Below are positions 8,545-39,360 of a stretch of 51,031 nucleotides of DNA, piece by piece. Made by a program: the position numbers and the translations under genes. The notes below the pieces were generated by a model. The model did no database searches. It was not told the DNA's origin and saw only the letters and a program-made list of their open reading frames with translations. Origin of the DNA: Escherichia phage BEK7; the sequence record MN158209.1; one strand, 5' to 3'. Every line of letters starts with the position of its first letter. Position 1 is the stretch's first letter.

Positions 8545-8980
8545 AAACTACACGATAAGGGAATTTCACGGCAACATTGATGCGTGGATAAACGCCGTTG
8601 ATAGTGGATTAAAAGATTGCGTGGAGTTGTTCGCCGAAAAAGTACACACAGATTTGGTTAAGCGTTCTCCGGTTGATACTGGTCGTTATCGTGCAAACTG
8701 GCAGGTAACAGCAAACAAGCCGCCATTGTATGCGCTTAATCAGTACGATAAGCACGGAGACAAAACGATCGCGGAAGGAAAACGTGCCATATACGCAATA
8801 TTACGAGGTGGCGGCGCAGTAAGAGCTATTTATTTTTCCAACATGCTTATTTATGCTAACGCGCTTGAGTACGGTCATTCAAAACAAGCGCCAGCGGGTG
8901 TGCTTGGTATTGTTGCCGTGAAATTGCGTTCATATATGGCTGAAGCAATAAAAGAGTCGAGGGCTAAAAATGCACTATGA
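8537..8980 (+). CDS. neck / tail completion protein (putative)
   Basis: 147-aa ORF overlapping neighbours; positional. Confidence 0.4.
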   Translation: MAKNYTIREFHGNIDAWINAVDSGLKDCVELFAEKVHTDLVKRSPVDTGRYRANWQVTANKPPLYALNQYDKHGDKTIAEGKRAIYAILRGGGAVRAIYFSNMLIYANALEYGHSKQAPAGVLGIVAVKLRSYMAEAIKESRAKNAL

Positions 8981-9479
8981 TGATATATTCACATACAAAG
9001 ATGGACTTATTTACTGGAAGATTCAGATTAAAGATCAGTCAAAATGTAAGTATCCTTGTTCTGTTGGCGACGTAGCTGGAAATGTAAATAATCGCGGATA
9101 CGTTGTTGTTAATATGTTTGGCGGTCAGTTTAGGGTTCATCGCATAGTTTGGGAGATGCACAACGGGCCAATTCCTGACGGCATGGAGATTGACCATATT
9201 AATCACAACACAACTGACAACAGAATTGAGAATCTAAGGATTGTTGATAGATCTGGAAACATGAGAAACAAAACAATCGACAAAAGAAACTCAAGCGGAG
9301 TTACCGGTGTTTACTATCATCGAAAAAACAAGAAATGGTACGCTCAAATAATGCACAACAAAAAGAGGTTGCACTTAGGTTTCTTTGTTAGCTTTGATGA
9401 AGCTGCTAAAGCAAGAAAAGATGCAGAATTAAATTTTGGATACCACAAAAATCACGGAGTTCAACATGAGTCACTATGA
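8970..9479 (+). CDS. HNH homing endonuclease (HNH_3 + AP2-like domain)
   Basis: Motif HRIVWEMHNGPIPDGMEIDHINHNTTDNRIENLRIV plus C-terminal AP2-like segment; inserted within the structural operon. Confidence 0.85.
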   Translation: MHYDDIFTYKDGLIYWKIQIKDQSKCKYPCSVGDVAGNVNNRGYVVVNMFGGQFRVHRIVWEMHNGPIPDGMEIDHINHNTTDNRIENLRIVDRSGNMRNKTIDKRNSSGVTGVYYHRKNKKWYAQIMHNKKRLHLGFFVSFDEAAKARKDAELNFGYHKNHGVQHESL

Positions 9480-9867
9480 ATTAATGCTATCGGCGCGTAA
9501 GGCGCTGGCGACTGAATACGAAAGCAGATTCATGATCGCTTATGAAAACGTAGAGTTTACGCCACCTGGTGACGGTTCGCCGTGGTTGAAGTTTGACTAT
9601 GCCGAAGTTGACACAGAATACTTGTCATTGGATCGCAAATGCGTTTCTTATATCGGAATGATTCAGGTTGGTATTGTGTTTCCACCAGGTTACGGAACTG
9701 ACAGGCCGCGTGTGCTCGCTAAAGAGATTGCGCAATTCTTTTACGATGGTAAAATGTTGGAGCATGGTTATATATATGAGGGTGCAAGAGTTCACAAGCC
9801 GCTCAAGAGTGAAAGCGGCTGGCTTCTCCCAATAAGGTTTTATGTTCGAATTGAAACAAAGGAGTAA
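9466..9867 (+). CDS. tail completion protein (putative)
   Basis: ATG after GGAG; positional. Confidence 0.4.
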   Translation: MSHYELMLSARKALATEYESRFMIAYENVEFTPPGDGSPWLKFDYAEVDTEYLSLDRKCVSYIGMIQVGIVFPPGYGTDRPRVLAKEIAQFFYDGKMLEHGYIYEGARVHKPLKSESGWLLPIRFYVRIETKE

Positions 9868-9872
9868 AAATT

Positions 9873-10535
9873 ATGCATTTACCAAATGGATCGCAAGTTT
9901 TCGTTGAGAGCAATCGCGGCAGCGAAATCCAAGCAACGGCAGTATCAAACGCTAAAGATCCTGTGTTCACCGTTGCATCTGGTGGCACTGCGTACAAGAA
10001 AGGAGATTATGTAATCATCACTGCGTCCTCCTGGGGTAAGCTGATTGATCGTGTTATGCGTGTAAAGGCTAACGGTGAAGAAACAAGCGTAACTCTTGAG
10101 GGTGTTGATACTACAGATCAGAACGTGTTCCCGACTGGCGGAACTGCATCTTTTGCCAAGATTGATGCATGGACTGAGATCCCTTGCGTTCAGGATTTGT
10201 CGCAGGACGGCGGCGAACAGCAATACTATACTTATCAGTGTTTGGCAGACGACCAGGAACAGCAGTTGCCTACCTATAAGAGCGCCATTTCTCTGACCTA
10301 CACTTTTGCGCACGAATACGATAACGCGATCTATCCGTTACTTCGTGCAGCAGACGAATCCGGTGAAGTAAAGGCGCTTCGCATGTATGTACCAAAAGCA
10401 AAAGAAATGCGCCTTTGGGCTGGTGTGCTTTCTTTCAACGAGATCCCACAAACGGCGGTAAACGAAATGGAAACCGTTTCTTTGTCGGTATCCCTGAAAG
10501 GTCGCTTTACTTTCTTGCCGTCTACTCAGGCTTAA
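9873..10535 (+). CDS. major tail protein
   Basis: 220 aa, RBS AAGGAG, directly upstream of the chaperone/tape-measure block; terminator downstream. Confidence 0.6.
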   Translation: MHLPNGSQVFVESNRGSEIQATAVSNAKDPVFTVASGGTAYKKGDYVIITASSWGKLIDRVMRVKANGEETSVTLEGVDTTDQNVFPTGGTASFAKIDAWTEIPCVQDLSQDGGEQQYYTYQCLADDQEQQLPTYKSAISLTYTFAHEYDNAIYPLLRAADESGEVKALRMYVPKAKEMRLWAGVLSFNEIPQTAVNEMETVSLSVSLKGRFTFLPSTQA

Positions 10536-10539
10536 TTTA

Positions 10540-10566
10540 AAGGGGCGCATTGCGTCCCTTTTTTAT
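10540..10566 (+). terminator. rho-independent terminator after major tail gene
   Basis: GC-rich imperfect hairpin GGGGCGCATTGCGTCCC then TTTTTT. Confidence 0.5.
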
Positions 10567-10606
10567 TTGATGTAATATCACCTCAATATTTAACCACTCA
10601 GGAGAA

Positions 10607-10927
10607 ATGACAATGGCTAAAATGAAATTGACTCTTGCCCCGCTTCCAGATTTCAAACTTCCAGTTAAATTTGTATTGCCGGATGGTAACGAGCAAAAAA
10701 TTGTGTTTACCGTTAAGCATAAAAAGGCCAGCGAGATTCAAGAGCTTTACCAGAAAGAAGGTATTAAAGATCCTGAATTCATCATGAATGTTGCCGTGGG
10801 TTGGGATCTGGAAGAAGAATTCAACGAAGAAAACGCGCAACTGTTAGTTGATTATTATCCTGGCGCGGCGCTTGCTCTTATGGGATCTTATTTGAGCGCG
10901 CTGGCAGGGCAACGCGTAAAAAACTAA
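10607..10927 (+). CDS. tail assembly chaperone (G-like)
   Basis: 106-aa ORF directly upstream of tape measure, ending just after slippery A_AAA_AAC. Confidence 0.7.
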   Translation: MTMAKMKLTLAPLPDFKLPVKFVLPDGNEQKIVFTVKHKKASEIQELYQKEGIKDPEFIMNVAVGWDLEEEFNEENAQLLVDYYPGAALALMGSYLSALAGQRVKN

Positions 10928-11238
10928 AACGGGCGGTTTATCTGTATTATCAGAAACCGCCGACAGACGCAGAGCTTGAGGCCGTTGGGCTTACAAGGGC
11001 AGACTATGAAGGAGAAGATCCGCCAGAGGTTATATTTGATGAAAGCATGATGCAATCATGGGATATATTTTGCGCAATGCAAACGCAATGGAGATGTTCT
11101 GGCGGTGGCGCTTACGGATTTGATTACAACGTTCTCCCGATGCTTTTTGAGATTTACAAGGTTGAGGATCGCGAGATGGCGCTAAACGACTTGCGAATCA
11201 TGGAGCAAAAAGCACTTGAAATGATGCATTCAAAATAA
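10607..11238 (+). CDS. tail assembly chaperone -1 frameshift fusion product (GT-like)
   Basis: The -1 frame is open from the slippery heptamer 10918-10924 to the stop at 11236-11238 (verified codon by codon); the second ORF (11047-11238) is in exactly the -1 frame. Confidence 0.6.
10918..10924 (+). other. programmed -1 ribosomal frameshift slippery heptamer A_AAA_AAC
   Basis: X_XXY_YYZ heptamer just before the chaperone stop codon, -1 frame open downstream. Confidence 0.6.
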
Positions 11239-11260
11239 GCGCCTACGGGCGCTTTTTTAT
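11237..11260 (+). terminator. rho-independent terminator between chaperone and tape measure
   Basis: AGCGCC-TACG-GGCGCT then TTTTTT. Confidence 0.6.
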
Positions 11261-11277
11261 TACCAGGAGGATTAATA

Positions 11278-24678: not shown

Positions 24679-24963
24679 ATGGTTGACGCCGCAAGGCGTC
24701 ACCTATCCTACGATGCAGAATCAGGAATTTTTACATGGATTCTTCCCACGTCGCAGAGCGTAGAGAAAGGTTCACAGGCCGGATCGCTTAGGAATGGATA
24801 CATAGGTATAAACATCCATGGCGAGCGATTTCAGGCGCACAGGCTTGCTGTTGCCTTCATTGAAGGCTATTTGATAGGCGATGTTGAAATTGACTACATA
24901 GACAGCAATTCTCTTTGCGAGTTCAGTTTGATGCGCATTCAACTTTCCGGTAGTCATTATTGA
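24679..24963 (+). pseudogene. degraded HNH homing endonuclease remnant
   Basis: HRLAVAFIEGYLIGDVEIDYIDSN resembles the HNH_3 core but His of DH is replaced and the ORF truncates after 94 aa. Confidence 0.45.
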
Positions 24964-25175
24964 CAACATGCAGCTCATGCTACCTATTCCGTTAAAATCA
25001 GTCATTGCAGATTTCATTATTGATATTGGAGAATAACCATCATCAGCTATTGTGTGCGCTCTCTCTGACAGGTCTTTAACTACCTGATCAATTCATTCAC
25101 TTTTCGTCATTTTCTTTTCCTTCAGGAATAGATATAAAACATTTGTAAGTGATATGTAAGAAACTGGCATAAAGA

Positions 25176-25219: not shown

Positions 25220-27238
25220 TTAATCCTCAAGCGTTGATTGCTTGTTAATTAACACTGAAACTACAGCTTTTAGTTCCTCAATCTCTTTTTGTAGTCTGGA
25301 TATCTTTTCCTTATTTTCATTATCACGTTTTGTTAAAGCCTGGATGGCCGCCAGACCATCAAGCAACATCGGAGTCGTGTCAAGATGCAACTTATCTCCG
25401 ACTTTTGTCGTGTATTCGCGGTCAATCAACCTGACTTGCTGAGCAATGACACCTCGTCTTGTGCTTCGTTCAGGGGAATCGCTCAGATAACGGAATAGTT
25501 TAAATTCCATTCTGTTAATATTATCCAATGCACCGTCAACGTTAAGATTGCCTTTAATATCCTTCAGGCTCTCATCAGATATGGCAGCGGTTGTTATTTT
25601 CAACCAGTCCTTCCAGCTATTACTCTCCAGGCATCTACCGTAAAAACCATTGTCTCTTGCCGCTATCTGCATTGCGTAGGAATTACTGTATCCAACGTGT
25701 ATCCCTGCGTACACCACATTATTAGCTGGTGAATTAACTTGCCCGGACATAAACAAACTACGGTTAACAATACTATTACCATCATTCCAATTCATGCTTG
25801 TGGCGGTCGTAATTCCACTCGGAGACCAAAAGCGACCAGCACGATCAAATGTAAAGAAATGAGTTGCATCACCTGATTTTGTAGCCCTATTGATAATGTT
25901 CACAACTCCATTAGCATCAACCCTAAATTCACCTTGTCCCTTATGCGTATTGGCTGAATCATAGTACCTTGTGGTAAAGGTTGCACCCTGAGTGTTTTCT
26001 ATACCATCAGCAAACACGCCGTTCGTACCATACGCCTTAACCTGACTAAACTGAACTTTGTCGTTAACGCCAAGGCCAATTGAAGCTCTAAATCCAGGGC
26101 TATTGTTTGGTCGGTCATATGCAGCCCACTCTGTCCATGGGCTTGGATTGCCTGCAAGATATTTTCTTATATAAAATCTGTTGCTGTTATTGTATGGGTA
26201 GTAAATCTGAGTACAACCATCAATGCCGCTTGCGCCGTTTCTTAACACCACAAGTGTTCCCGCGGAACTCTCTGGGTATCCACGCCCAGGTGTAGCGGCA
26301 GCGTTTCCAGATTGATAATACACACCGCTTTTTGCGCCAGTCAGCGTATTTAGATCTGTTTCTCCAAGAGCGGTCCTTGATTCACGGAACGTTTCAAGAT
26401 TACCCCTTGCACCTTCTGCACTTGTTGCACCAGTACCACCCCGCCCAACAGCAAGAGGCTTCGCTTCACCAGTAGTTGACTGAACACCCCAATTGCCATT
26501 ATTGGCAACAAACATGCTTAACTTTCCATCAGGTGATGCAATCTGATTGAACTTGCCAGCATCTGTACTTGTAGTACAGAAAACTCCTTGCACTCCAAGA
26601 TTTGTCTTTGCTGTATTAACATCGGTTAGATCGGAAAGGTTTGCATCTTTGCGTAAAAGGTTTTCAGCATTCAGGCTTTTAGCAAATTCCTCCGCCTCAT
26701 TGCGAGCAGTAACAGCGCCAGCCTTTGCAGTTTCAGCAGCACTCTTTGCAGACTGAGCATCGGTCATGTGTTGCTTTGCTGAGTCTCTTGCTGACACAGT
26801 TTCATTCTTAAGTTGTTCAGTTGCAGCGCGATCGGCTGATGTATTTTCTGCTGCATCCTTAATCTGATTTACCAGATCTTGTAACGCCTTCAGGTCAAAA
26901 TCTTTGAAAAACTCTATAGCTTCCTCAATGATTGTTTCTTTACTCTGATAGTATCGCAGCGTTTCAGCTACATCTTGAGCAAGTCCATCAACGGTTATTG
27001 AGTCATGAATCAAGATCGCGTAATTTGAGCGAGCAACTACCGCTCCACCAGTTGTAATTGCACGAATGCTTGTATCGTTTATAACTTCAGTTATTACAGC
27101 GATTTGTAACGGCTGAGTTAAGAATACAATGGTCGCGCCAGGGCGAATGAGTGTTAGTTGCTCTCGCCATTTTGTGTCGTATCCAGTTATATAGCCTTGA
27201 GCGTCCATTGACGCCTGTCCTGTTCTGTAAATTGCCAT
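25220..27238 (-). CDS. tail fibre protein with C-terminal intramolecular chaperone (S74-like) domain
   Basis: ATG after GGAG; Ala/Thr-rich coiled N-terminal region; C-terminus has [12 protein letters not shown]...[15 protein letters not shown] resembling the autoproteolytic chaperone domain of endosialidase/L-shaped fibres. Confidence 0.75.
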
Positions 27239-27295
27239 GCGCTTTCTCCAATGTTGCATGTTAATGTCAATGCAGATAATAGCATTTGCTAAGGC

Positions 27296-27320
27296 CAAAA
27301 AAAACCCCGCAATGCGGGGT
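27296..27320 (-). terminator. rho-independent terminator (minus strand)
   Basis: CCCCGC-AAT-GCGGGG with 8-nt A-run on + strand, between primase and tail fibre. Confidence 0.6.
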
Positions 27321-27337
27321 AAAAGTAGCAGTGACAT

Positions 27338-28270
27338 TTAGAGAAGAAATTCAGGTTTATAAACCTTCCTCTCTATCCCTTGCCTGTAATTATCATTAAT
27401 CGGCATCATAATTTCAAGTCCTCTTTCCTCTGCAGCAATGATCGCGTCACGATCTGTGCTCTTGCAGACAACTCGCATTCTTCTGTTGCCTTTATACCTG
27501 TAAGCTACAATCTCAATGTTAGTTGCATCAAAGCAGGCCCAAACCTCCTGACCAGTTGCAAGGTGAATATGTTGCGCATCAATCCAGTCAACGCAAAGAT
27601 AGATAGTCTTATCTGTACTTCCGGTTCTAACAATCGACCCTCTCGTGTAGTCCTTTGCTAGAAAAGACTGATTACCTTCTTCATCAATGAAAAGCACATT
27701 GCACATTTCATCATCAATTTCATCTGAATGTACCAGGTAACATGGTAACGCGTGAATGTATCGACCATCTTTAACGCCGCATTCATAATAACCATCTTCA
27801 GAAGGATATATCCCTTCATAGGTGCTTAACGGCGTGCGATCAAGTTTTAGTGTTTTTGACATAACGCGCTCGCAGCATTCATGGCTTGCCTGTTTCCCAA
27901 ACGAATAACCAGAATCACGAGATACTCGCTTATTTGCCTTGATTCTATAGTCCTGCGGAACTTTTCCAAGAAAGCGACCCAAAATATTGATCACTTCGCT
28001 GTAAGGTTCTCCGGTTAGCTTCATGATCCAACCAATTCCAGTATCGTTCCCGCACACGTTGCAGATAGCGCCTCCGTCGCCTTTTTTATCTCCAAGTTTA
28101 TCAGTCCATCTAAAGCGATCCTTTCCGCCGCAGTGGGGGCAAGATTGATGCTTGCCGTTAAAAACTTCATTTGGAAGACCGCAAATACTTTGTAGCGCCT
28201 CACGCCATAATCCCTGCATATATGGGAGAATATCTTCCTTTTGATAAACCATAAAGTTTTCGTTGTTCAT
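27338..28270 (-). CDS. DNA primase (zinc-ribbon type)
   Basis: ATG after GAGGTG; zinc-binding CPHCGGKDRFRW...CNVCG motif typical of primase zinc ribbons. Confidence 0.65.
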   Translation of the reverse strand: MNNENFMVYQKEDILPYMQGLWREALQSICGLPNEVFNGKHQSCPHCGGKDRFRWTDKLGDKKGDGGAICNVCGNDTGIGWIMKLTGEPYSEVINILGRFLGKVPQDYRIKANKRVSRDSGYSFGKQASHECCERVMSKTLKLDRTPLSTYEGIYPSEDGYYECGVKDGRYIHALPCYLVHSDEIDDEMCNVLFIDEEGNQSFLAKDYTRGSIVRTGSTDKTIYLCVDWIDAQHIHLATGQEVWACFDATNIEIVAYRYKGNRRMRVVCKSTDRDAIIAAEERGLEIMMPINDNYRQGIERKVYKPEFLL

Positions 28271-28325
28271 ATGCACCTCAAACAAAAAAGCCTGACAGAT
28301 GATAACATCATGCCAGGCATTGTTT

Positions 28326-28799
28326 TTAGCAATTAGTGCTTTCAGGTTTATACAGGAATCCGCCAGGCTCATAATCTGACATTCTTACCACTCGCAACAT
28401 TTCACGCTTATCACATCTCTTTGTGAGCGGTTTGCCATTGGAATCAAATCGCAGGTCTGGACGACAGAATGATGCGCGATAGCCTTGACATCCATATTTT
28501 TTGTAATCGTTATGCACCTTTTGAGCGCCAGCAGCTGAAATCATACCGCGAACACGCCACTGATTTACAGTTTGCTGGCTAACGTTAAGACGTTTTGCCA
28601 TTGCTGATACACTTCCGTAATACTCAATAAGGATGTCAAGTCGCGCTTTTAGTCCGGCGCGCACTTCATCTTTTAAAACATAGTATCCTGTAGGGCGCTT
28701 GCGTTTCTTCTTATCCTTGCCTCGTCTGGTTCCGTTATTGCCATTAATTGTGCGCTTGTCAATCTTGCCAGTTGATACCGCGATTCGCTGTTCTTTCAT
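28326..28799 (-). CDS. HTH DNA-binding protein (putative transcriptional regulator)
   Basis: Lys/Arg-rich N-terminus and helix-turn-helix-like SVSAMAKRLNVSQQTVNQWRVRG; divergent from helicase gene. Confidence 0.5.
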   Translation of the reverse strand: MKEQRIAVSTGKIDKRTINGNNGTRRGKDKKKRKRPTGYYVLKDEVRAGLKARLDILIEYYGSVSAMAKRLNVSQQTVNQWRVRGMISAAGAQKVHNDYKKYGCQGYRASFCRPDLRFDSNGKPLTKRCDKREMLRVVRMSDYEPGGFLYKPESTNC

Positions 28800-28811
28800 T
28801 ATTCATTCTCC

Positions 28812-28831
28812 AATAGCATTTTTTGTTAAAC
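28812..28831 (+). promoter_or_regulatory. conserved 21-nt promoter-like element (copy)
   Basis: AATAGCATTTTTTGTTAAAC; TATTAT 21 nt downstream; about 55-75 nt before helicase start. Confidence 0.5.
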
Positions 28832-28888
28832 GATGATTTAATGATTGTGTATTATACACGCCAAATGGCATTACTCAAAGGTTTTAGA

Positions 28889-30916
28889 ATGATTCCAAAC
28901 ATTGAAAAGCAAATATCAGCACTTGGTGAAGCGGTAATTAAATCCATTCAGGAGCGATTCACTGTTGGCGATATTGTGCCTTACCCTTACCAGTGCGTTG
29001 CATACGCTGAGATCGCAAAGCGTATGAAAAATTATGAGCATCCATTCTTTGTTAAAGCGTCGGTATCGTCTGGCAAAACATTGATGTTTGCAATGGTTGC
29101 TCACCAGTGCCGGAAAATGTGCTTAAAAATGATGGTTCTTGCTCGCCAGGCTGAGATTGTGGATCAAGATTCTGAAGAGATAACAAATCTTGGCGTGCCG
29201 AACTCCATCTATTGTGCAGGACTGAAGACAAAAAGCGCATACTTTCCGATCGTTGTTGGTTCTGAGGGAACTGTAGTTAATGGACTGTTTAAAGCGCTTG
29301 GCGACTATGTTCCGCACGTTATCGGGATTGACGAGTGTCACCAGGTGGATTGGGAAGACCTTGCCGACGCCATAGAGAAAGACGAGTCATTTTTACAAAT
29401 GACGACAAAGAAAGGCGAAAAAGTACAAAATCCAGATTATGACGTAGCGAGCGATAACGAATGCGAAGAATTCCTGATTGGTGAGGATGGCTTGCCAATG
29501 GAGGGAACAGGCCGCACACAATACACTGTCATTATCATGGAAATGATGCGACGTTGCAGGAAAGCATATGGTCATGAACTGCGCATCTTTGGTATGACTG
29601 GATCGGAGTTTCGCGGCGTAGTTCCAATACTGGTAGAAGATAAAAAACAAAAAGGATTCTGGCGCGAACAGGTTACTAATATTGATACCAACTACCTTAT
29701 CAAGTTTGGCTCGGTTGTGCCTACCAATTTTGGCGACGTTGGCGATCTAGGTTATGACCTTTCAGAGTTTGAGGCATCCAGTGAGGACGGCGTTGAAGAC
29801 TTTGACCAGAAAACTCTGCGCAAGATGGAGGAGAAGATCCATAATGATGCAACCATGACGCAAAAAATCATGTCACGCGTGCATGAGATCTGCAAAGACC
29901 GCAACGGCGTGCTGGTAACTTGCGCAGGTGAGCGTCACTGTAAAGAGGCCGCTGCCGCACTTCCGACAGGCACGACATACAGAATCATCACTGGCAAGAC
30001 GGGAGAGAAACAGCGTAAGGAGTGGTTAAGGGAAGCATTCGAGGGAAAGGTAAAATACATTTTCCAGGTTCAGGCGCTAACAACTGGCGTTAACCAGCCG
30101 TTATGGGATACTTCCGTCATTCTGCGTAAAATCAGATCACTAACGTTGCTGATTCAGCTTTTAGGGCGCGGTATGCGACTGCTTAAGAAATGGCATATTG
30201 AGCAAGGATTCACGAAAAACGATCACCTTGTTCTTGATTTCGCCGGAACGATGGACGAGCTAGGGGATTTATATTTCGATCCTATACTTGAGCAAGCGCA
30301 ATTCCAGAAGCGATTCACCAACGGGAAAGATCCGAAAACTTGCCCGATATGCAAGACGCTGAATAGCTACTACGCGCGCCGTTGTATGCACGTAGACGAA
30401 AGCGGAAAACGGTGTGAGCACTTCTGGACGTATCGCGAATGCACAGACCAGGTAGATCCGAGAACGAAAAAGATTATTCATCGCGGTTGCGGAACAAAAA
30501 ACGACGTAGTGGCGAGAGTATGCCGTTGTTGCGATATTTCTCTTGTCGATCCTAACGAGAAGTTAAGCGGCAAGCACTACACGAAAAACGATTACATGAG
30601 TGTTAAATCGTTCCGTGTTGACATGACAAAAAACCAGAAAGGTATCGTTTTTTGCTATGAGCTTGATTATCATGGGGAAACATTCAAGGCATACGAAAGA
30701 TTTTTCCCTGAGTCAGAAAGCAACATTTGCCGGACGATATGGAGAAAAATAGCATTGCAGCACATACCGGATCGCAAGATTGCTGGTATGGTGGCGAGCT
30801 ATAGAAATGCGCGTAAAATTATGGCATACGCCCATCACATCATGCCGCCAGTACGCGTGACGCATCGCAAGACGGCGAAAGGAGAGGACAACATTGCTAA
30901 ACGGGAGTTTGCTTAA
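28889..30916 (+). CDS. SF2 DNA helicase (DExH box)
   Basis: Walker A VSSGKT, DECH box (IGIDECHQV), C-terminal Cys-rich zinc-finger-like region; start could also be 28868. Confidence 0.75.
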   Translation: MIPNIEKQISALGEAVIKSIQERFTVGDIVPYPYQCVAYAEIAKRMKNYEHPFFVKASVSSGKTLMFAMVAHQCRKMCLKMMVLARQAEIVDQDSEEITNLGVPNSIYCAGLKTKSAYFPIVVGSEGTVVNGLFKALGDYVPHVIGIDECHQVDWEDLADAIEKDESFLQMTTKKGEKVQNPDYDVASDNECEEFLIGEDGLPMEGTGRTQYTVIIMEMMRRCRKAYGHELRIFGMTGSEFRGVVPILVEDKKQKGFWREQVTNIDTNYLIKFGSVVPTNFGDVGDLGYDLSEFEASSEDGVEDFDQKTLRKMEEKIHNDATMTQKIMSRVHEICKDRNGVLVTCAGERHCKEAAAALPTGTTYRIITGKTGEKQRKEWLREAFEGKVKYIFQVQALTTGVNQPLWDTSVILRKIRSLTLLIQLLGRGMRLLKKWHIEQGFTKNDHLVLDFAGTMDELGDLYFDPILEQAQFQKRFTNGKDPKTCPICKTLNSYYARRCMHVDESGKRCEHFWTYRECTDQVDPRTKKIIHRGCGTKNDVVARVCRCCDISLVDPNEKLSGKHYTKNDYMSVKSFRVDMTKNQKGIVFCYELDYHGETFKAYERFFPESESNICRTIWRKIALQHIPDRKIAGMVASYRNARKIMAYAHHIMPPVRVTHRKTAKGEDNIAKREFA

Positions 30917-31386
30917 TGAATTGGCATGATATTTTTTCATATGATAATGGTCGCCTTTTTTGGGCGACCAAAAGAGCAAACTGCATAAAAGTAGGTGACG
31001 AGGCAGGATTTTTACATCACCAAGGATACAGATTTGTTTGCATAAACGGGAAACAATTTGCAATCCATAGAATAGTATGGGAGATGCACTACGGAAAAAT
31101 ACCATATGGATATGAAATAGATCATATTAACGGCATAAGAGATGATAACCGCATAGAAAACTTGCGTCTGGTTATGAGAATCGACAACATGAAAAACAAA
31201 GCTACGTATAGGAATAACAAAAGCGGATTTGCTGGTGTTTCATGGGATAAAAGTAAGTCTAGATGGGTGGCAAAAATTGCAAACAAAAAACTAGGTGACT
31301 TCAAAAGCATAATTGATGCCGTGAATGCAAGAATAGTTGCAGAAGTTAGCTCAGGATTTCACAAAAATCACGGGAGGAAGCAGTGA
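30916..31386 (+). CDS. HNH homing endonuclease
   Basis: HRIVWEMHYGKIPYGYEIDHINGIRDDNRIENLRLV plus AP2-like C-terminus. Confidence 0.85.
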   Translation: MNWHDIFSYDNGRLFWATKRANCIKVGDEAGFLHHQGYRFVCINGKQFAIHRIVWEMHYGKIPYGYEIDHINGIRDDNRIENLRLVMRIDNMKNKATYRNNKSGFAGVSWDKSKSRWVAKIANKKLGDFKSIIDAVNARIVAEVSSGFHKNHGRKQ

Positions 31387-31799
31387 TAACTGATAAAGGC
31401 GATTATCTTGAGTTTTACGAAAGGGATCCAACCGACACGAGAAGGGAAGTTAATCACCAGATAGATAGTTTTCAGTGGTTGACTTATGCTCATCCTTATT
31501 TGCTGGCGTGGCATACGGTAAACGAGAATGAGAAGTCTAAAGCAACGGCGATGATTGATCAGCAGTCCGGTTTGGTTAAGGGAGTAAGCGATTTTATCAT
31601 CCTGATTGGTACAAAAGGCCGCTACCCGTTTGCGGCTATTGAGATGAAGCGCGTCAATAAGTCCGGAAAGGGAAAGGCTTCACCAGTCAGCAATGAGCAA
31701 AAAGCCTTCTTGCGACGTGTGCGTGAGATTGGCGGATTCGCCGCTGTAACATACGGATATAAGCAATTCATGATCGCTGTAGAATACATGATGAAATAG
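31383..31799 (+). CDS. VRR-NUC domain nuclease
   Basis: GVSDFIILIGTKGRYPFAAIEMKRVN...EQKAFL pattern (D...E.K) characteristic of VRR-NUC. Confidence 0.7.
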   Translation: MITDKGDYLEFYERDPTDTRREVNHQIDSFQWLTYAHPYLLAWHTVNENEKSKATAMIDQQSGLVKGVSDFIILIGTKGRYPFAAIEMKRVNKSGKGKASPVSNEQKAFLRRVREIGGFAAVTYGYKQFMIAVEYMMK

Positions 31800-31815
31800 C
31801 ACTTTTTGTTAAAAC
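31795..31815 (+). promoter_or_regulatory. conserved 21-nt promoter-like element (copy)
   Basis: AATAGCACTTTTTGTTAAAAC; TAG at 31797-31799 is the stop of the VRR-NUC ORF; CATAAT 22 nt downstream. Confidence 0.5.
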
Positions 31816-31873
31816 AGGCGCGAAGGATTTCGCCATAATAACAACAGTTCAACAAGCAACAGGTAATTAAGAA

Positions 31874-32575
31874 ATGAGCAAAGAAACTGAAGTGACATTT
31901 GAACAAATAGAACGCGAAACATTCATTGGCAATGCTCTTGCTACTGGTGGTCATTACCAGGCTGTTAAACCAAATCAATATTTCAAAGTGACTGGCAACC
32001 GCTATAACGGCAGCAATACGCCGGACGTTGTGCGCGATATGTGGAGCACGCCTCAAGAGATTGTGGAGTGGATGGAATCAGAATTTGGTGAATACGATCT
32101 CGACGCGGCAGCAAGCCAGGAAAACGCAGTTTGCGAGAAGTTCTATAGCAAGGAAACAAACTGCTTAAAGCGTTTGTGGGGTAGTAATAAGCATATATGG
32201 CTGAATCCACCGTACAGCAATATTACTCCATTTGTTAAGAAAGCGATTGAGCAAATGGAGTACAATAACCAGATCGACATTCTGTTACCTTGCGACACAT
32301 CAACAGGATGGTTTTATGAAGCGCAACAGCGAGCAGCGGAAATCATCTGGATCACTGGCGAAGTTTACCAGGAGGACGGAACAGAATATTCCCGCACCGG
32401 ACGACTGGCGTTTACCTCGGCTCTTACAGGTAAACCAGTGCAGGGAAACAACAAAGGAAGCGTTATTTTCATCATGCGCGAACTTAAAGAAGGTGAGCAG
32501 CAGAAAACGCGATACGTTAAGATCAGCGATATTTGTCCTTCTGTAACCGAACGTCGCGCACGGAAACGGAGCTAA
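31874..32575 (+). CDS. dam: DNA N6-adenine methyltransferase (phage Dam-like)
   Basis: Catalytic NPPY motif (HIWLNPPYSN); 233 aa. Confidence 0.8.
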   Translation: MSKETEVTFEQIERETFIGNALATGGHYQAVKPNQYFKVTGNRYNGSNTPDVVRDMWSTPQEIVEWMESEFGEYDLDAAASQENAVCEKFYSKETNCLKRLWGSNKHIWLNPPYSNITPFVKKAIEQMEYNNQIDILLPCDTSTGWFYEAQQRAAEIIWITGEVYQEDGTEYSRTGRLAFTSALTGKPVQGNNKGSVIFIMRELKEGEQQKTRYVKISDICPSVTERRARKRS

Positions 32576-34546: not shown

Positions 34547-34717
34547 ATGAAAGTACGTTGCACCAGAAACACATCTAAGCAATTGCCCTACACCGTCGGC
34601 CTGATTTACACGTCGGTAGCAATCCCTGGCGGGATGTATGAGATCCGCGACGGACAAGGTAGCGCGATTATCGCACCACTACACGGCTATTATCTGACTT
34701 TTTCGCCAGTAGAATGA
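34547..34717 (+). CDS. hypothetical small protein
   Basis: 57-aa ORF starting at ATG overlapping previous stop (TAAAATG). Confidence 0.3.
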   Translation: MKVRCTRNTSKQLPYTVGLIYTSVAIPGGMYEIRDGQGSAIIAPLHGYYLTFSPVE

Positions 34718-34740
34718 CCATATAAAACATTAACTTATAA

Positions 34741-34772
34741 GGAGGCTTGATTTTTAAGTCTCCTTTTTTTAT
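34741..34772 (+). terminator. rho-independent terminator
   Basis: GGAGGCT-loop-AGTCTCC followed by 7-nt T-run. Confidence 0.6.
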
Positions 34773-34840
34773 TTATTTTTTCAGCACAATGTTTAAAATA
34801 CAATCATCACTATTGACATTTGAATAAAGAGGATCTAAAT

Positions 34841-35056
34841 ATGAAAGATTTTTTGAACGCTGCAACGTCCGGCACGGGCGGCGCATCAATCACTGGAGCA
34901 GTAACAGGACAAACGGCAATTGCAATTGCCAGCTTCGTATTGATGGCTATTTTCGGCGTATGGGGCGCTTATCTGCGGTGGCGTGATAGTAAAGCCTTCC
35001 AGAAGGCGCTTGATAGTGGTGACTTTAAAAAAGCAATTGAAATCAGGGGTAAATGA
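34841..35056 (+). CDS. holin (pinholin candidate)
   Basis: 71 aa with one clear hydrophobic TMD and charged C-terminus; RBS AAGAGGA; directly upstream of and overlapping the endolysin gene. Confidence 0.6.
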
Positions 35057-35544
35057 TGAGCGCAAGAAAAAGCATCGTGTCCGTCGCTATCGGTGCTGCG
35101 CTTGCTCTTACTTCTCCACTCCTTGAAGAAATTGAGGGGATCAGATACACGCCATATAAAGATATTGCCGGAGTCTGGACGGCATGCGCCGGAATCACCG
35201 GAAAAGATGTGATTATCGGTAAGACCTACACAAAGCGAGAATGCGATGCGCTACTGGCAAAACATATCAAGGTGGCAAAGGATGAAGTAGACAAGCGCGT
35301 GAAGGTTGAAATCCCAGCCACGATGCGAGCGGCGATGTATAGTTTCACTTTTAACGCTGGCGTTGGTGCATTCCGCAATTCGACAATGCTCAAACTGATT
35401 AATCAGGGCAGATTGCCGGAAGCGTGCCAGCAGTTATGGCGGTGGGATAAATTCACGAATCCTAAAACCGGAAAGAAAGAACTCTCGAAAGGTTTACGCA
35501 ACCGCCGCGCGGTGGAATTTAAATATTGCATTAAGGATCTGTAA
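35053..35544 (+). CDS. SAR endolysin (phage lysozyme family)
   Basis: N-terminal weakly hydrophobic Gly/Ala/Ser-rich segment ([18 protein letters not shown]) followed by lysozyme catalytic region [23 protein letters not shown]. Confidence 0.75.
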
Positions 35545-35546
35545 TT

Positions 35547-35945
35547 ATGCGAAAGTTATCAATAATCGCGATCGCTGTTATTTTGTCTGGATGTTCAAGC
35601 GTTACGCCACTGACCGGATTAATCGGCAGTAAACCGGAAATCACAGCACAGGCAGGAGCTGAGAACGTAAAGCAGACCGTTGGCGTTACCGCAAAGCAGG
35701 ACACCAGTACAAAACAGGAAACCACAATAAAGGAATCTGCGGTTGATAAGGTGGACACTTCAAGCAAGAAGGATTTCACTACGTCAACCATTCAGGCTAA
35801 CACCATCAAGGCTGATAAAATCCAGGTCGTGCAGGGTGAGCAAAGGAAATGGTACGATCCTATAATCTATTGCGCTGCGATTTTCAGTGGTCTTTTGACT
35901 ATGCTTTACTTTTCCTACCGCAAAGGCAACAAAAAGGAGGCTTAA
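35547..35945 (+). CDS. unimolecular spanin (u-spanin)
   Basis: N-terminal lipoprotein signal with lipobox LSGC plus C-terminal TMD (IIYCAAIFSGLLTMLYF); architecture as described for T1 gp11. Confidence 0.7.
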   Translation: MRKLSIIAIAVILSGCSSVTPLTGLIGSKPEITAQAGAENVKQTVGVTAKQDTSTKQETTIKESAVDKVDTSSKKDFTTSTIQANTIKADKIQVVQGEQRKWYDPIIYCAAIFSGLLTMLYFSYRKGNKKEA

Positions 35946-35956
35946 CGCCTCCTTTG

Positions 35957-36199
35957 TTATTCAATACGCTTTACAGTAACCAATAAAACGCCGTCATCAT
36001 CACACAAATTATGCTCTGATATGTTAAACGCTCGCATGTCAGAATGAATTAGCGTTAACATTGCGTGCATGAAGTCGCCATGTGAGATTTGAGAAGTAGC
36101 GCAAAACTTAAGAATTTCATCTATCAGTTTACTTTCCATGATTTTCATGATAACCAAGTTTAGCCTCTGCTTGTTCTCTTGCCATAATTGCATCATCAA
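35957..36199 (-). CDS. hypothetical protein
   Basis: 80-aa ORF, last gene of leftward cluster. Confidence 0.35.
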   Translation of the reverse strand: MMMQLWQENKQRLNLVIMKIMESKLIDEILKFCATSQISHGDFMHAMLTLIHSDMRAFNISEHNLCDDDGVLLVTVKRIE

Positions 36200-36214
36200 T
36201 GCTTGAAAATAATC

Positions 36215-36601
36215 CTAAATGAATACTCTTACCTTTATCATATATGGTTGCATGCCATTTCTTTCTTTCTTCCTCCAGCACACTCCAACCCTACCAGATT
36301 TATTTCTTTTTAGTAGAGATACGTTTTTGCTGTTCTCTAATCTTGATGCAAGCCTTAAATTTTCAATCCTGTTATCCAACCTATTGTGCCATATATGATC
36401 TATCTCCATTCCTTCTGGTATTTTTCCATTGTGCATTTCCCATATTATTCTATGAGCCAAAAGCAATACACCATTATACCTTATTCTTACATAGCCATTT
36501 TTATCTACACATCCAGCAACGATTCCTGGCTTTGCTTTTCCCCTTCTGTTTCTCCATCTCAATATTCCATTGTCATATATAAATATTTTATTCCAATCCA
36601 T
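36215..36601 (-). CDS. HNH homing endonuclease
   Basis: HRIIWEMHNGKIPEGMEIDHIWHNRLDNRIENLRLA. Confidence 0.85.
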   Translation of the reverse strand: MDWNKIFIYDNGILRWRNRRGKAKPGIVAGCVDKNGYVRIRYNGVLLLAHRIIWEMHNGKIPEGMEIDHIWHNRLDNRIENLRLASRLENSKNVSLLKRNKSGRVGVCWRKKERNGMQPYMIKVRVFI

Positions 36602-36986
36602 ATCTTTTCCTTAGAGCTTCTATTTGTTGTCTATTAGCATTTGGCGTAAACAATTCTTCATCACTCATTTCTCCGATCCGTAAAACATCTCTTACCCATT
36701 CGTTTTGCATACCTTCCAGGCTGTAAAGTTCAAACGAGAAAGGGCGATTTGCTGATCCTTTCTTACACCAGAACTTTCCACAAACTCCATCAAGATAACC
36801 AGCAGTCATCATTCTTGCGCAAAACTCTTTTGAAACGGCAGTCGCAAACATTCTCGGCGTAAATCCTGCGGCCCTTGCGAGCCGCTCACATTCTCTGTGC
36901 TGAAAGATAAATTTTGCTATATGTTGACGCGTAAACCATTCGAATGACTCACACCAGCGATAAATATCAAGTAGAAACACGATCAC
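36588..36986 (-). CDS. hypothetical protein
   Basis: 132-aa ORF (true start probably internal ATG). Confidence 0.35.
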   Translation of the reverse strand: MIVFLLDIYRWCESFEWFTRQHIAKFIFQHRECERLARAAGFTPRMFATAVSKEFCARMMTAGYLDGVCGKFWCKKGSANRPFSFELYSLEGMQNEWVRDVLRIGEMSDEELFTPNANRQQIEALRKRYGLE

Positions 36987-38566
36987 CCCAGCAATGTTGG
37001 ATTTACGAAAACAACGCCATTAATCACACAAATATAATTTCTTTCCTCAAGCATCGGAAGCAGTTGCGTTTCCATGCGCTTCATTACGCCAGCCTGACCA
37101 ACAAAAGGCTTAACTTTTCGTGCTGCCTCATATATGGCGCGCACATTCAAGATTCCCTTATTAGCCTTGCCGTGTCGAGTGATGATCTCGATTAGTTTAC
37201 CCATTTCAGCATCATCACCAGCATAGCCAGAAGCGTTTGCGGCGCTAATGTATGTTTTGCTCAACTCGCTAAACATCAGCAATGCTTCCTGAACGGTTTC
37301 AACCTCAATCTCTTTAGACTTCTGAGGGTATCCACCAGGATTAAACCAATTGCGGATAGTGTGCAAAACCGAAGCAATCCTGATCACCTGCTTATCCATT
37401 TTGCCAAGCGCACCTCGCAGCATTGTATGCGAATACTTTCCGCCATCAGCAAGATGCGGTTCCATCTCCTGACGAGCCATGTTAAGCACTCGCATTGCTG
37501 ATTTGCTGATCTTAAGCTGGATGTTTGATTCGCTCATTATGTTATGGATCAGCTTGAAATATTGGCTTTTCAGTTCCCCATCAACAGGTTCATAAGTAGA
37601 GTCACCGTTATCATCAACAAACTTTCTACGGCCTAAAAATGATTCCTCACGCACAAGCAAATAACGCTCACTTACACCGATACCTCGCGATCCTGCATCC
37701 ATGATGGCATTGATTGTTTCATCCTGGGCAATTACCGCCATACATCCAAGAGCTTTAAAACTCATATTGTTGTCAGCGTTTGCGCGAGCTATAGAAACAT
37801 GACCGTGATCCCATGCTTTCAGCACAAGTTCGCTGTTTGTTTTGCGTTCGCTATTGGCATATGTCAGACCTAAAAGGCTGTTAATACTCGTTGCCTCGTC
37901 TGAAATTACAGCAAAGTTACCCTGGCGATTGTTGATTCTTGCAAGTCCTTCCGGCGTGGTATCGGACACAGGGAAAACAATGTCACACATCTTTTCAAGT
38001 TTTTCTTCAAGATCTTCTTTCTCCTGGTATAGCGATTCCATGTCAGCGCCAGATCGCTCGCTTTTCATCTCTTTTGCAAGACCTGCCAACTTTGCCTGAA
38101 TCTTTTTTCGTTCCTTCTTTCGCTGATCATTAATTCTTTCTACTTCAGCAACCATAGGAGCAAGCGCCAGGCTGTTAACGGCAGATTTACCAGTTGAAGG
38201 AGGCTGGCTTGTGACAACATAAAGAGCGGTCGGCTGATCCGTTCCGTGATACTCAACAGTGAAGCGTCCAAGCATTGCAGCAGACACACATCCGATAAAA
38301 TGCATATATGCCGATGATTCAGGGAACTGAACTGATCGAGCAATGTTGCGCGCCAACTTACCAACAACATCAACATCATTGCCAAGAGAAATTATAGGGT
38401 AGCGATCGTTTCCGTTATTAACATCATTAACCCCACCCCAAAAGCTGGACGATTGACGGTATCCGTTAGCCTGAATGGACACGCGCACCGGAGACAATCC
38501 TTGCGCATCAGCTAATTCTATAATTTGTTTTGGTGTTAGTTTATTGGTTTCAAACGAAAAATTCAT
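36983..38566 (-). CDS. P-loop NTPase protein (possible replication protein)
   Basis: ATG after GGAG; Walker A-like SQPPSTGKS; about 527 aa; no other motif recognised. Confidence 0.45.
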   Translation of the reverse strand: MNFSFETNKLTPKQIIELADAQGLSPVRVSIQANGYRQSSSFWGGVNDVNNGNDRYPIISLGNDVDVVGKLARNIARSVQFPESSAYMHFIGCVSAAMLGRFTVEYHGTDQPTALYVVTSQPPSTGKSAVNSLALAPMVAEVERINDQRKKERKKIQAKLAGLAKEMKSERSGADMESLYQEKEDLEEKLEKMCDIVFPVSDTTPEGLARINNRQGNFAVISDEATSINSLLGLTYANSERKTNSELVLKAWDHGHVSIARANADNNMSFKALGCMAVIAQDETINAIMDAGSRGIGVSERYLLVREESFLGRRKFVDDNGDSTYEPVDGELKSQYFKLIHNIMSESNIQLKISKSAMRVLNMARQEMEPHLADGGKYSHTMLRGALGKMDKQVIRIASVLHTIRNWFNPGGYPQKSKEIEVETVQEALLMFSELSKTYISAANASGYAGDDAEMGKLIEIITRHGKANKGILNVRAIYEAARKVKPFVGQAGVMKRMETQLLPMLEERNYICVINGVVFVNPTLLG

Positions 38567-38619
38567 TGGTGATAACTCCTTTTTGATGCGGCAATAATAC
38601 CGCACCAATGCTACCCGCA

Positions 38620-38638
38620 TTTAACAAAAAATGCTATT
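38620..38638 (-). promoter_or_regulatory. conserved 21-nt promoter-like element (copy)
   Basis: Minus-strand AATAGCATTTTTTGTTAAA; its TAG is the stop of ORF 38634-38897; TATTAT 22 nt downstream. Confidence 0.5.
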
Positions 38639-38897
38639 TGATCCGCTCTATGCTAACTAAGATTTTTTCTGGTTCCTTTGCACTATGGAAATGCGCGGTT
38701 ACAGAATCAACAAAATCAAAGTAAAGTGATTTGTGATATGAGAATCCAATCAGCCAACCTACCGCCGTTTTTTTGATGGGCCTGACTATATCGCCAGGCT
38801 TGAAGGTTTTTGTTGCTGAATAAGTCACCTTATAGCGATATTCAGTCTTGATCATGAGACTTCTCTTTTCCGTGGTTTTCGTGGAAACCATGCTCAA
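38634..38897 (-). CDS. hypothetical protein
   Basis: 87-aa ORF. Confidence 0.35.
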   Translation of the reverse strand: MSMVSTKTTEKRSLMIKTEYRYKVTYSATKTFKPGDIVRPIKKTAVGWLIGFSYHKSLYFDFVDSVTAHFHSAKEPEKILVSIERIK

Positions 38898-39360
38898 TCA
38901 ACAACCTATCTATTGCTGATATAGCCGACTCAATACATGTGTGCCATCCACCATAAATCAATCTACCATCAACCTTTACATTAACCTTGTACTTCCCCCT
39001 ATTTTCGTACCAGATAATTCCTATATGACCGATTGTATTGTTAGATCGCATGGATAAATTTCGTCCGTTTATCGACCTTGTAACCAATCTCAAGTTTTCT
39101 ATCCTGTTATCAGTTCTGTCATGGTTTATGTGATCAATTTCCATTCCTTGAGGAATATCTCCGTTGTGCATAATCCAAACAACCCTGTGAGCATAAATTT
39201 GTACACCTTCTACAGTTAGCTTTACATACCCTTTGCTGTTTACGGTTCCAGCCTCAAGACTGCGTTTTCTACCCTTTCTCCACTCCTTCCAGTAAAGAAT
39301 ACCGTCGTCGTATCTTAGTTGGCTTAGAAGTATTTCGCTTGAAATTTTGCAGTTGCACAT
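38842..39360 (-). CDS. HNH homing endonuclease
   Basis: HRVVWIMHNGDIPQGMEIDHINHDRTDNRIENLRLV. Confidence 0.85.
   Translation of the reverse strand: MCNCKISSEILLSQLRYDDGILYWKEWRKGRKRSLEAGTVNSKGYVKLTVEGVQIYAHRVVWIMHNGDIPQGMEIDHINHDRTDNRIENLRLVTRSINGRNLSMRSNNTIGHIGIIWYENRGKYKVNVKVDGRLIYGGWHTCIESAISAIDRLLIEHGFHENHGKEKSHDQD

Follow-up and report, generated by a model that had tools for sequence, protein, structure and literature searches.

Among described homing endonucleases, those of the I-HmuI/I-HmuII family of the Bacillus phages SPO1 and SP82 combine N-terminal DNA-binding strands with an HNH domain of the beta-beta-alpha-metal type and its His/Asn/Asn residues, and the homing endonuclease genes (HEGs) of the Escherichia phage BEK1-23 resemble them in these features. 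I-HmuI nicks one strand; its gene lies within a group I intron and its C-terminus is a helix-turn-helix, whereas the BEK1-23 genes are free-standing with a putative AP2-type C-terminus. In phage T4, free-standing HEGs of the Seg and Mob groups (e.g., MobE and SegG) are likewise located between conserved genes and occur sporadically among relatives; cleavage by these enzymes has been demonstrated, as has marker exclusion in mixed infection, and flanking markers are co-converted. However, Seg enzymes belong to the GIY-YIG type and Mob enzymes to another HNH subgroup. Homing endonucleases that join HNH and AP2 domains have been described in phages, cyanobacteria and protists (Magnani et al., 2004, as cited in PMC10448857), and HEGs placed at genetic-exchange boundaries have been reported, together with an HNH/AP2 pair of vibriophage ICP1 that is frameshifted (PMC10448857). 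The ICP1 'IPA-HNH' genes share with those of BEK1-23 the two-domain layout, the free-standing organization and a position beside essential genes and at genetic-exchange boundaries, and the frameshifted pair gp115/gp116 parallels the BEK1-23 copy H3 (PMC10448857). Their divergence puts them beyond the reach of the Pfam HNH_3 model (PMC10448857), whereas the BEK1-23 genes are canonical HNH_3 members. Within the Drexlerviridae, HNH genes of the same family, often at the same sites, are present in T1, Rtp, tonn, tonnikala, Fulano1 and BEK12A, and 'Occasional repositioning of HNH nucleases' has been noted in T1-like phages (PMC13164509). One BEK1-23 lineage, H2, differs in its narrow range, which comprises only BEK-type phages and a small number of metagenome contigs.

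The window, i.e., the whole stretch of 51,031 nucleotides that was analysed, is the complete, rotated genome of BEK1-23 (MN158211.1; Drexlerviridae, Hanrivervirus). The genome of this T1-like coliphage is already published; a literature search under the phage name turned up no paper. All five ORFs named in the original prediction, as four intact HNH endonuclease genes and one decayed copy, are present, those at 36215-36601 and 38842-39360 on the minus strand, and the proposed core motifs HR(I/V)(I/V)W, EIDHI and DNRIENLR were found in all four full copies, H1-H4, each of which already carries the label "homing endonuclease" in GenBank. The number of intact genes had to be lowered, since ORF 36215-36601 (minus strand) is frameshifted and its AP2-like domain sits in the -1 frame at 36129-36281 (minus strand; E 4e-13 by HMM); the count is therefore three intact genes, one frameshifted gene and one deletion remnant. 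The features are the following:

8970-9479, plus strand: H1, predicted intact HNH_3 and AP2-like homing endonuclease gene, 169 aa (QGH77130.1, 'homing endonuclease')
8973-8980, plus strand: left copy of the repeat CACTATGA of H1, with the stop codon of the upstream gene inside
9472-9479, plus strand: right copy of the repeat CACTATGA of H1, with the H1 stop codon inside
24679-24963, plus strand: remnant of a fifth predicted HNH_3 homing endonuclease gene (family HMM E 2e-7; PHROG 99 E 1.3e-15)
24772-25110, minus strand: collateral pseudogene, homolog of herni gp82 (PHROG 7239), with a stop at codon 6
30916-31386, plus strand: H2, predicted intact HNH_3 and AP2-like homing endonuclease gene, 156 aa (Pfam HNH_3 74.4 bits, E 5.5e-21)
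36129-36601, minus strand: H3, frameshifted HNH_3 and AP2-like homing endonuclease pseudogene, from HMM and alignment to intact orthologs
36258-36266, minus strand: H3 frameshift site, GAAAGAAAGAAATGG in BEK1-23 against GAAAGAAAAAAAATGG in Fulano1
38842-39360, minus strand: H4, predicted intact HNH_3 and AP2-like homing endonuclease gene, 172 aa (Pfam HNH_3 82.5 bits, E 1.6e-23)

An HMM scan of all six frames over the entire window recovered the four copies and the remnant and no further HNH_3 copy at E < 1, and the GenBank annotation of BEK1-23 contains no HEG of the GIY-YIG, LAGLIDADG or T5orf172 families. The assignment of the genes to an "HNH_3/AP2 type" held for the first domain, H1-H4 scoring 77.3, 74.4, 77.1 and 82.5 bits against Pfam HNH_3 (PF13392), far above the gathering score of 24.8 bits (H1: E 6.9e-22), and reaching E values of 1e-48 to 1e-65 against PHROG 99 'HNH endonuclease' (H1: 1.6e-65); the remnant had no match in Pfam. 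The second domain was not confirmed by Pfam, where AP2 matches (weak in H1) reached 22.9 and 19.9 bits against a gathering score of 33.3 bits, but it was recovered by profile and fold searches. A PDB search with the single H1 sequence yielded largely spurious hits to spike proteins of coronaviruses and placed I-HmuI at E 0.095; it was replaced by a 17-member family profile, which matched I-HmuI (1U3E) over positions 2-100 (E 1e-8) and the AP2/ERF domain of WRI1 over positions 103-152 (E 3e-4). Residues H76, N88 and N97/N100 (H1 numbering) are invariant in 17/17 family members, H1-H4 included; the remnant fails this catalytic-residue test, its His being replaced by Tyr and the others lost. An AP2-type DNA-binding domain is a three-stranded sheet packed on a helix. 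In an AlphaFold model of H1 (mean pLDDT 76, built from a 4-sequence alignment) the C-terminus is predicted to form strands at 113-139 and a helix at 142-155, and these elements match the AP2 domains of TEM1 and AtERF1 (Foldseek probability 0.99-1.00; for 1GCC, TM 0.66 and rmsd 2.6 A). The top Foldseek match of the model is again I-HmuI 1U3E (E 5e-4, probability 1.00), the TM score being just 0.43 because the domain arrangement differs. Taken as predictions, these results make it very probable that the ORFs are free-standing HNH_3/I-HmuI-like HEGs with a C-terminal AP2-type DNA-binding domain, scattered through the BEK1-23 genome.

The free-standing state was examined by a search for flanking introns. 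Rfam gave zero matches to introns or structured RNAs in the whole window, at the gathering threshold and at E <= 1; there is no group I intron and all copies are therefore free-standing. Intron-encoded HEGs of group I or II were rejected on the same grounds and because the insertions lie between genes, none within. The genes on either side are unbroken, and their ends overlap with those of the HEGs. The comparison with relatives lacking the insertions, which had been suggested as a check, yielded empty alleles at 5/5 sites and fixed the junctions to within a few bases: each full gene is a precise insertion of ~470-520 bp at a gene junction. Phage herni has zero HNH_3 sequence in all six frames, and at least six additional junctions carry HNH_3 genes in relatives and are empty in BEK1-23.

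H1 follows a neck/tail-completion gene (8537-8980) and precedes the tail-terminator gene (9466-9867). Compared with the junctions of A16a, A134, E6 and herni, its insertion measures 499 bp and is flanked by the 8-bp direct repeat CACTATGA. The ATG at 8970, directly before the left repeat, is the tail-terminator start codon in the empty genomes, and the insert brings a new start for this gene (ATGAGT, 9466) ahead of the right repeat. By megablast, H1 was found in 5/101 matching phage records and is missing from ~96; the exact protein occurs in 17 contigs, with an identical site in every one. In tonn, a phage of another genus, the junctions are identical to those of BEK1-23 and the gene is 99.6% identical at the nucleotide level, and the right flank with the tail genes shows 72-75% identity. 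No co-conversion signal was detected around H1 in the Hanrivervirus comparisons, where the flanks are 94-99% identical throughout. H2 is inserted exactly within the overlapping stop and start codons (TAATG) of the ResIII helicase and VRR-NUC genes, where empty genomes have ~3 nt in place of 467 bp, and its 3' end provides VRR-NUC with a GTG start as well as a ribosome-binding site (GGGAGGAAG). It is carried by 3/200 matching phage records (megablast), and the exact protein was found in 19 contigs, flanked by helicase and VRR_NUC every time. Among relatives above 56% identity, the phage collection, IMG/VR and a set of 5.8 billion proteins contained only exact copies at the same site. In the Logan contig L033, from a metagenomic phage, H2 lies in a tract of ~3 kb (29500-32500) with 99.6-100% identity, within a backbone of 72-80%. 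An insertion near this site in BEK12A was set aside, being an extra gene between VRR-NUC and Dam, off the H2 junction.

H4 lies downstream of the DUF3987 helicase gene, with a small gene on either side (38634-38855 and 39324-39707), and its site is empty in A14b and herni, which have 51-54 nt where BEK1-23 has ~520 bp. Five of the 139 matching records carry it (megablast), and sequences with 93-99% identity are present in A16a, with an in-frame stop, and in L032, L033 and L035; divergent HNH genes occupy the site instead in E6, A121, BEK12A and Fulano1.

H3 is adjacent to a YdbL-like gene (36588-36986) and to a small ORF of PHROG 9539 (start ~36139), for which it supplies the start codon; ~25 bp of overlapping gene ends are duplicated. 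The site is empty in E6, A134, A121, herni, L032 and L035, and H3 was found in 9/127 matching records (megablast). Different phages harbor distinct HNH lineages at this site, which are 74% identical to each other against 87-96% in the flanks. The annotated 128-aa ORF (36215-36601) retains the HNH core. Compared with the intact 157-aa orthologs of Fulano1 (99.2% identical nucleotides) and tonnikala (88.6% in the gene, 71-82% in the flanks), H3 has lost one base within an A-rich run and shows an A>G substitution there. It appears unlikely that this lesion is a sequencing or assembly error in an intact gene or that programmed ribosomal frameshifting reads through it. The A-rich context, the 100% identity of the downstream sequence to the intact Fulano1 gene and the confinement of the truncated protein to GenBank records of the BEK series would suit an error, but the deletion together with the A>G change breaks the homopolymer, which is atypical for a miscall, and the Logan assembly of run SRR11808712, made independently, matches the region at 100% identity, frameshift included. 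Programmed -1 frameshifting was rejected in favor of a pseudogene, since there is no X_XXY_YYZ slippery heptamer in the zero frame, the lesion is a simple indel relative to the intact orthologs, and these need no frameshift.

The remnant was correctly described as a truncated copy with the core His replaced: it reads EIDYID, the catalytic His codon having become a Tyr codon (TAC, 24895-24897), and relatives have the intact gene. A 295-bp deletion (junction 24902-24909, microhomology ACAGnAAT) has removed the AP2 domain along with the remainder of the HNH core, and has shifted the frame. The intact version (EIDHID...DNLR) is present in A16a, E6, A134 and A121 and is N-terminally truncated in A14b; the site is empty in herni, and the metagenome contig L032 has the same deleted allele as BEK1-23. 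The deletion also cost the herni gp82-like pseudogene its 3' end, and GenBank annotates just 24772-25017 of it, as a hypothetical protein. The frameshifted H3 and the remnant represent two copies in decay, as is expected at a later stage of the HEG life cycle.

Across the sites, the arrangement of the insertions keeps flanking phage genes intact, in that the downstream start is taken over, a replacement is brought along and overlapping ends are duplicated. At H1 and H2, where the downstream gene is essential, the 3' end of the HEG provides a ribosome-binding site in addition to the new start. It is distinctly unlikely, albeit conceivable, that translation of the downstream gene thereby comes to depend on the cassette (translational addiction) or that the split H3 yields a separate AP2 protein that acts in regulation or exclusion. 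Such a function of AP2 domains has been shown in phage CasPR anti-CRISPRs (bioRxiv 10.64898/2026.02.23.707548). If such addiction were true, imprecise loss of the HEG would be lethal and the selfish gene would be stabilized.

Repeated and independent invasion by homing endonucleases, as the original prediction had proposed, is well supported by the sequence comparison: the five copies show pairwise identities of 31-51%, each has its own junction, and the junctions are empty in most close relatives. Presence and absence by themselves cannot tell gain from loss. This symmetry leaves room for a scenario in which ancestral HNH genes, no longer mobile, were lost many times, and BEK1-23, A14b and A16a directly show genes decaying by deletion and frameshift. 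We nevertheless consider differential loss very unlikely, given the 99.6% identity of H1 across two genera beside tail genes of 72-75%, the H2 tract in L033 with its much more divergent backbone, the GC content of the HEGs (34.2-39.5%, i.e., 4-9 points below the 43.6% of the genome) and the different HNH lineages found at one site in different phages. H1 identity, the H2 tract, low GC and the presence of different lineages at one site all point to recent horizontal movement, and the HEGs are better conserved than their flanks in other phages.

A domesticated function is harder still to reconcile with this distribution. HNH nucleases of similar architecture serve packaging in HK97-like phages (PMC10448857), and H2 lies within the replication module, so that one might think of housekeeping enzymes for terminase cos cleavage (of the HK97 gp74 type) or for replication and recombination. 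Yet no copy adjoins the terminase genes (TerS 1-522, TerL 522-2090), the nearest, H1, being ~6.9 kb downstream of TerL; none is genus-wide, any given copy being absent from 93-98% of the matching records; herni, with the same terminase genes, has zero HNH_3; and two copies are pseudogenes. Such a role seems extremely improbable and, given the apparent dispensability of the genes in relatives, is largely refuted.

The expectation that the insertions mark mosaic boundaries was borne out in single cases and not across the panel. H1 coincides with a breakpoint from 99.6% to 72% identity in tonn, H2 with the tract shared with L033, and the remnant adjoins a swapped tail-fibre gene; H3 lies beside the sole diverged patches relative to L032, which lacks it and is 99-100% identical to BEK1-23 overall but 81-95% directly beside H3. 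When identity in the 500-bp flanks was compared with random positions of the very mosaic BEK1-23 genome, the five sites were not enriched in six full relatives (P 0.62 for flank divergence, 0.44 for the left/right jump). The sites are no more mosaic than random positions, and no general link to mosaic boundaries is therefore demonstrated.

Judging from the known biology of the family, the movement of free-standing HEGs of this kind would start in a mixed infection, when a carrier meets a relative without the gene. Guided by the AP2 domain and by the N-terminal part of the protein, the HNH (beta-beta-alpha-metal) site would then be positioned at or near the empty junction, where the enzyme may nick or cut the empty allele, and recombinational repair would copy the HEG with some flanking sequence out of the HEG-carrying genome. 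A tentative extension of this homing model, possible but not the more likely reading, is that the HNH genes are weapons between phages, which cut co-infecting relatives and exclude their markers, and are thus more than purely selfish passengers. Competitive exclusion of this type has been shown for an intron-encoded HNH enzyme in jumbo phages. The intact H1, H2 and H4 lie beside essential genes (tail terminator, helicase/VRR-NUC and DUF3987 helicase, respectively), identical H2 and H4 proteins persist across several environmental assemblies, and relatives without these genes are potential targets; on the other hand, the decay of two of five copies speaks against strong selection for keeping each, and most close relatives thrive without HEGs or with different ones. 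A weapon role is compatible with homing and offers no alternative mechanism.

The BEK1-23 HEGs are ordinary selfish homing endonuclease genes of a kind already known. Beyond good annotation their importance is small, since GenBank labels exist and both the HNH+AP2 class and its mobility in T1-like and other phages are documented. An annotation as pseudogenes is appropriate for H3 and the remnant, and work on phylogeny and recombination in the Tempevirinae should mask the five BEK1-23 sites together with the at least six further HEG sites in relatives. BEK1-23, with five filled sites, and herni, with zero, constitute a clean pair of small, easily handled coliphages for the study of homing, co-conversion tract length and marker exclusion.

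The first 25 kb of the window are 100% identical by megablast to the genome of Escherichia phage BEK1-23 (MN158211.1, 51,031 bp; Drexlerviridae, Tempevirinae, Hanrivervirus), and the window is this entire genome, rotated (window position = record position - 8116). The sibling records BEC3 and BEK12B showed no differences from the window in all regions compared. Four intact homing endonuclease genes (HEGs) and one decayed copy had been predicted from the sequence, and all five reading frames were borne out, with 36215-36601 and 38842-39360 lying on the minus strand:

8970..9479 (+): H1, HNH_3 and AP2-like gene between the neck and tail-terminator genes
30916..31386 (+): H2, between the helicase and VRR-NUC genes
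36129..36601 (-): H3, annotated as ORF 36215-36601
38842..39360 (-): H4, between two small genes
24679..24963 (+): remnant of the fifth HEG
24772-25110 (-): herni gp82-like wreck (PHROG 7239), interrupted by a stop at codon 6 and lacking the deleted 3' end

GenBank already labels four of these CDS as "homing endonuclease", with exactly the predicted coordinates. The finding is real, with one detail corrected (the state of H3), and ordinary, infestation of coliphage genomes by homing endonucleases being routine knowledge.

H1-H4 matched Pfam HNH_3 with 74-83 bits (cut-off 24.8) and PHROG 99 "HNH endonuclease" with E-values of 1e-48 to 1e-65, and the core motifs on which the prediction was based were found in all four full copies. 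A family HMM made from the four copies and searched against all six frames of the window recovered only H1-H4, the remnant (E 2e-7) and a 53-residue piece at 36132-36290(-), which matches the C-terminal part of the family (E 4e-13). This piece is the missing C-terminus of H3 in another frame. When H3 is aligned with its intact 157-aa counterparts in the related phages Fulano1 and tonnikala, the lesion (GAAAGAAAGAAATGG in BEK1-23 versus GAAAGAAAAAAAATGG in Fulano1) is seen to consist of one lost base and an A>G change, with no difference from Fulano1 anywhere downstream. The lesion region is 100% identical in a Logan assembly made independently from run SRR11808712, so that an artefact of one assembly does not account for it. 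Programmed frameshifting was also considered for H3, and no slippery heptamer is present there to suggest it. The four intact genes thus become three intact and one frameshifted; the decayed fifth copy stands as predicted. A parallel to H3 is the frameshifted HNH/AP2 pair of phage ICP1 (PMC10448857).

A search of the PDB with a single sequence was uninformative. With a profile built from 17 family members, taken from the window and from relatives, positions 2-100 matched I-HmuI (1U3E, E 1e-8), an HNH homing endonuclease, and positions 103-152 matched plant AP2/ERF domains, those of WRI1 (E 3e-4) and TEM1; His76, Asn88 and Asn97/100 are invariant among the 17. The AlphaFold model of H1 (mean pLDDT 76) gave I-HmuI as the top Foldseek match, followed by the AP2 domains of TEM1 and AtERF1, the latter (1GCC) with a TM-score of 0.66 and an rmsd of 2.6 A. 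I-HmuI, the closest solved relative, is an enzyme that nicks a single strand; it is itself encoded in an intron and carries a helix-turn-helix tail. Among described classes, that of the HNH+AP2 homing endonucleases comes closest, and the H1-H4 proteins are members of this known class (PMC10448857). Flanking group I introns had been raised as a possibility; Rfam found no intron and no other RNA family over the window even at E <= 1, and all copies are therefore free-standing.

Comparison with relatives carrying empty sites defined the junctions of H1-H4, all four of which have the orientation of the adjacent genes and overlap with these on either side. Empty relatives read ...AAAAATGCACTATGAATTAATG... 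at the H1 site, where the neck gene stop (TGA) overlaps the tail-terminator start (ATG CAC TAT GAA). In BEK1-23, a 499-bp element is flanked by CACTATGA twice (8973-8980, 9472-9479), an octamer that contains both stop codons; H1 now uses the old tail-terminator ATG and first three codons (MHY), and the tail-terminator gene has a new start, ATGAGT, supplied by the 3' end of the element. H2 starts at the former helicase/VRR-NUC overlap TAATG, replaces ~3 nt by 467 bp and at its 3' end provides GGGAGGAAG, a ribosome-binding site, together with a GTG start for VRR-NUC. Between VRR-NUC and Dam, the related phage BEK12A has an additional 435-nt hypothetical gene (L010 10306-10740) that BEK1-23 does not have. 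H3 separates a YdbL-like gene from a small PHROG 9539 ORF, and ~25 nt of the overlap of these two are duplicated, in degenerate form, on both sides of the insertion; the PHROG 9539 start codon lies within the 3' end of H3. At H4, 51-54 nt were replaced by ~520 bp.

The site of the remnant is empty in herni, a phage of the same genus (67 nt from the SSB gene to gp82), and occupied by an intact gene in A16a, E6, A134 and A121 and by an N-terminally truncated one in A14b, all five encoding EIDHID...NNAYDNLR...N and an AP2-like tail. In BEK1-23 a Tyr codon (TAC) has replaced the catalytic His codon (CAT), and a 295-bp deletion (junction 24902-24909, microhomology ACAGnAAT) removed the rest of the nuclease, shifted the frame and took the 3' end of the convergent herni gp82 homolog. 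The GenBank CDS 24772-25017 is part of this wreck, and the C-terminus annotated for it is HEG sequence read in antisense. The metagenome contig L032 carries the identical deleted allele, which therefore circulates in nature. In most relatives, unrelated sequence takes the place of the tail-fibre gene at 25220-27337 (-), which matches Peptidase_S74 weakly; besides BEK1-23, only A14b and L032 have this gene, and its swap boundary adjoins the remnant. Elsewhere, the first 527 nt of the polynucleotide kinase/phosphatase gene 45672-46420 (+) match that of herni at 98.5%, and the last ~60 residues of the 237-aa herni protein are replaced in BEK1-23 by a different small ORF (46211-46420).

The genes are sporadic among matching phage records (H1 in 5 of 101, H2 in 3 of 200, H3 in 9 of 127, H4 in 5 of 139), and HNH_3 sequence is absent from all frames of herni. 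The five copies are mutually only 31-51% identical, with a GC content of 34-39.5% versus 43.6% for the genome. The exact H1 protein was found on 17 contigs and the exact H2 protein on 19, from several samples and with the same junction in every case. Apart from exact copies at the same site, nothing above 56% identity to H2 was found in the phage collection, IMG/VR or a 5.8-billion-protein set, and this isolation is the only mildly unusual point. Decaying copies were also seen in A16a (H4 ortholog with an in-frame stop, L002 28072-28515 (-)) and in A14b (L003 1551-1796 (-) and 37735-38145 (+)); in A14b the copy of the fifth HEG has no N-terminus, and only ~70 bp of H3 are left, the deletion having also taken the adjacent small ORF. 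About 20 GenBank 'Campylobacter phage' records (UNVERIFIED, host C. jejuni; including L002-L006: MG065636, MG065640, MG065643, MG065663, MG065670) are Hanrivervirus/T1-like. Since they are 90-92% identical to BEK1-23 across ~80-85% of the coliphage length, the host label looks doubtful, and they are possibly contaminating coliphages.

Mosaic boundaries at the insertions had likewise been expected. BEK1-23 and tonn, which is of a different genus (Warwickvirus), share H1 at 99.6% identity and with identical junctions; the left flank is 93-98% identical, and immediately to the right identity falls to 72-75%. L033 (Logan ERR2241927_9120), a sewage or metagenome phage aligned to 27250-32500 and 38750-40250, shares a 99.6-100% tract (29500-32500) centred on H2; its backbone, with the recombination and lysis modules, is 72-80% identical to BEK1-23, as against 98.8-100% for the blocks around H2 and H4, which on these alignments look like a case of HEG-centred exchange in nature. 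H3 is missing from the contigs L032 and L035, which match BEK1-23 at 99-100% nearly throughout; their sole diverged patches (81-95%) are a few hundred bases to the left and to the right of the H3 site. Fulano1 has H3 at 99.2% identity. At the H3 and H4 insertion sites, different HNH lineages are found in other phages, and in A16a the gene at the H3 site is 74% identical versus 87-96% for its flanks. When 500-bp flanks of the five sites were compared with random positions in six full relatives, neither divergence (P 0.62) nor identity jumps (P 0.44) were enriched. Because of this result, and because the BEK1-23 genome is mosaic everywhere, the expectation holds for specific pairs, but in this sample it is no general statistical rule.

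Earlier work has already commented on the mobility of HNH genes in T1-like phages (PMC13164509). Sporadic distribution, composition, site fidelity, identity contrasts, site turnover and further sites are, at the level of sequence, evidence that the present genes are mobile. Cleavage, its targets, nicking versus double-strand cutting, and the predicted marker exclusion would follow by analogy with the known behaviour of the family. At least six further junctions, empty in BEK1-23, hold HNH_3 genes or fragments in relatives (A134, A121, A16a, E6, Fulano1, BEK12A):

about 2063/2088, 11228/11278, 16665/16734, 34502/34548, 36979/37003 and 40456/40473: further HNH_3 junctions

Since these junctions are empty there, BEK1-23 itself would be a potential recipient.
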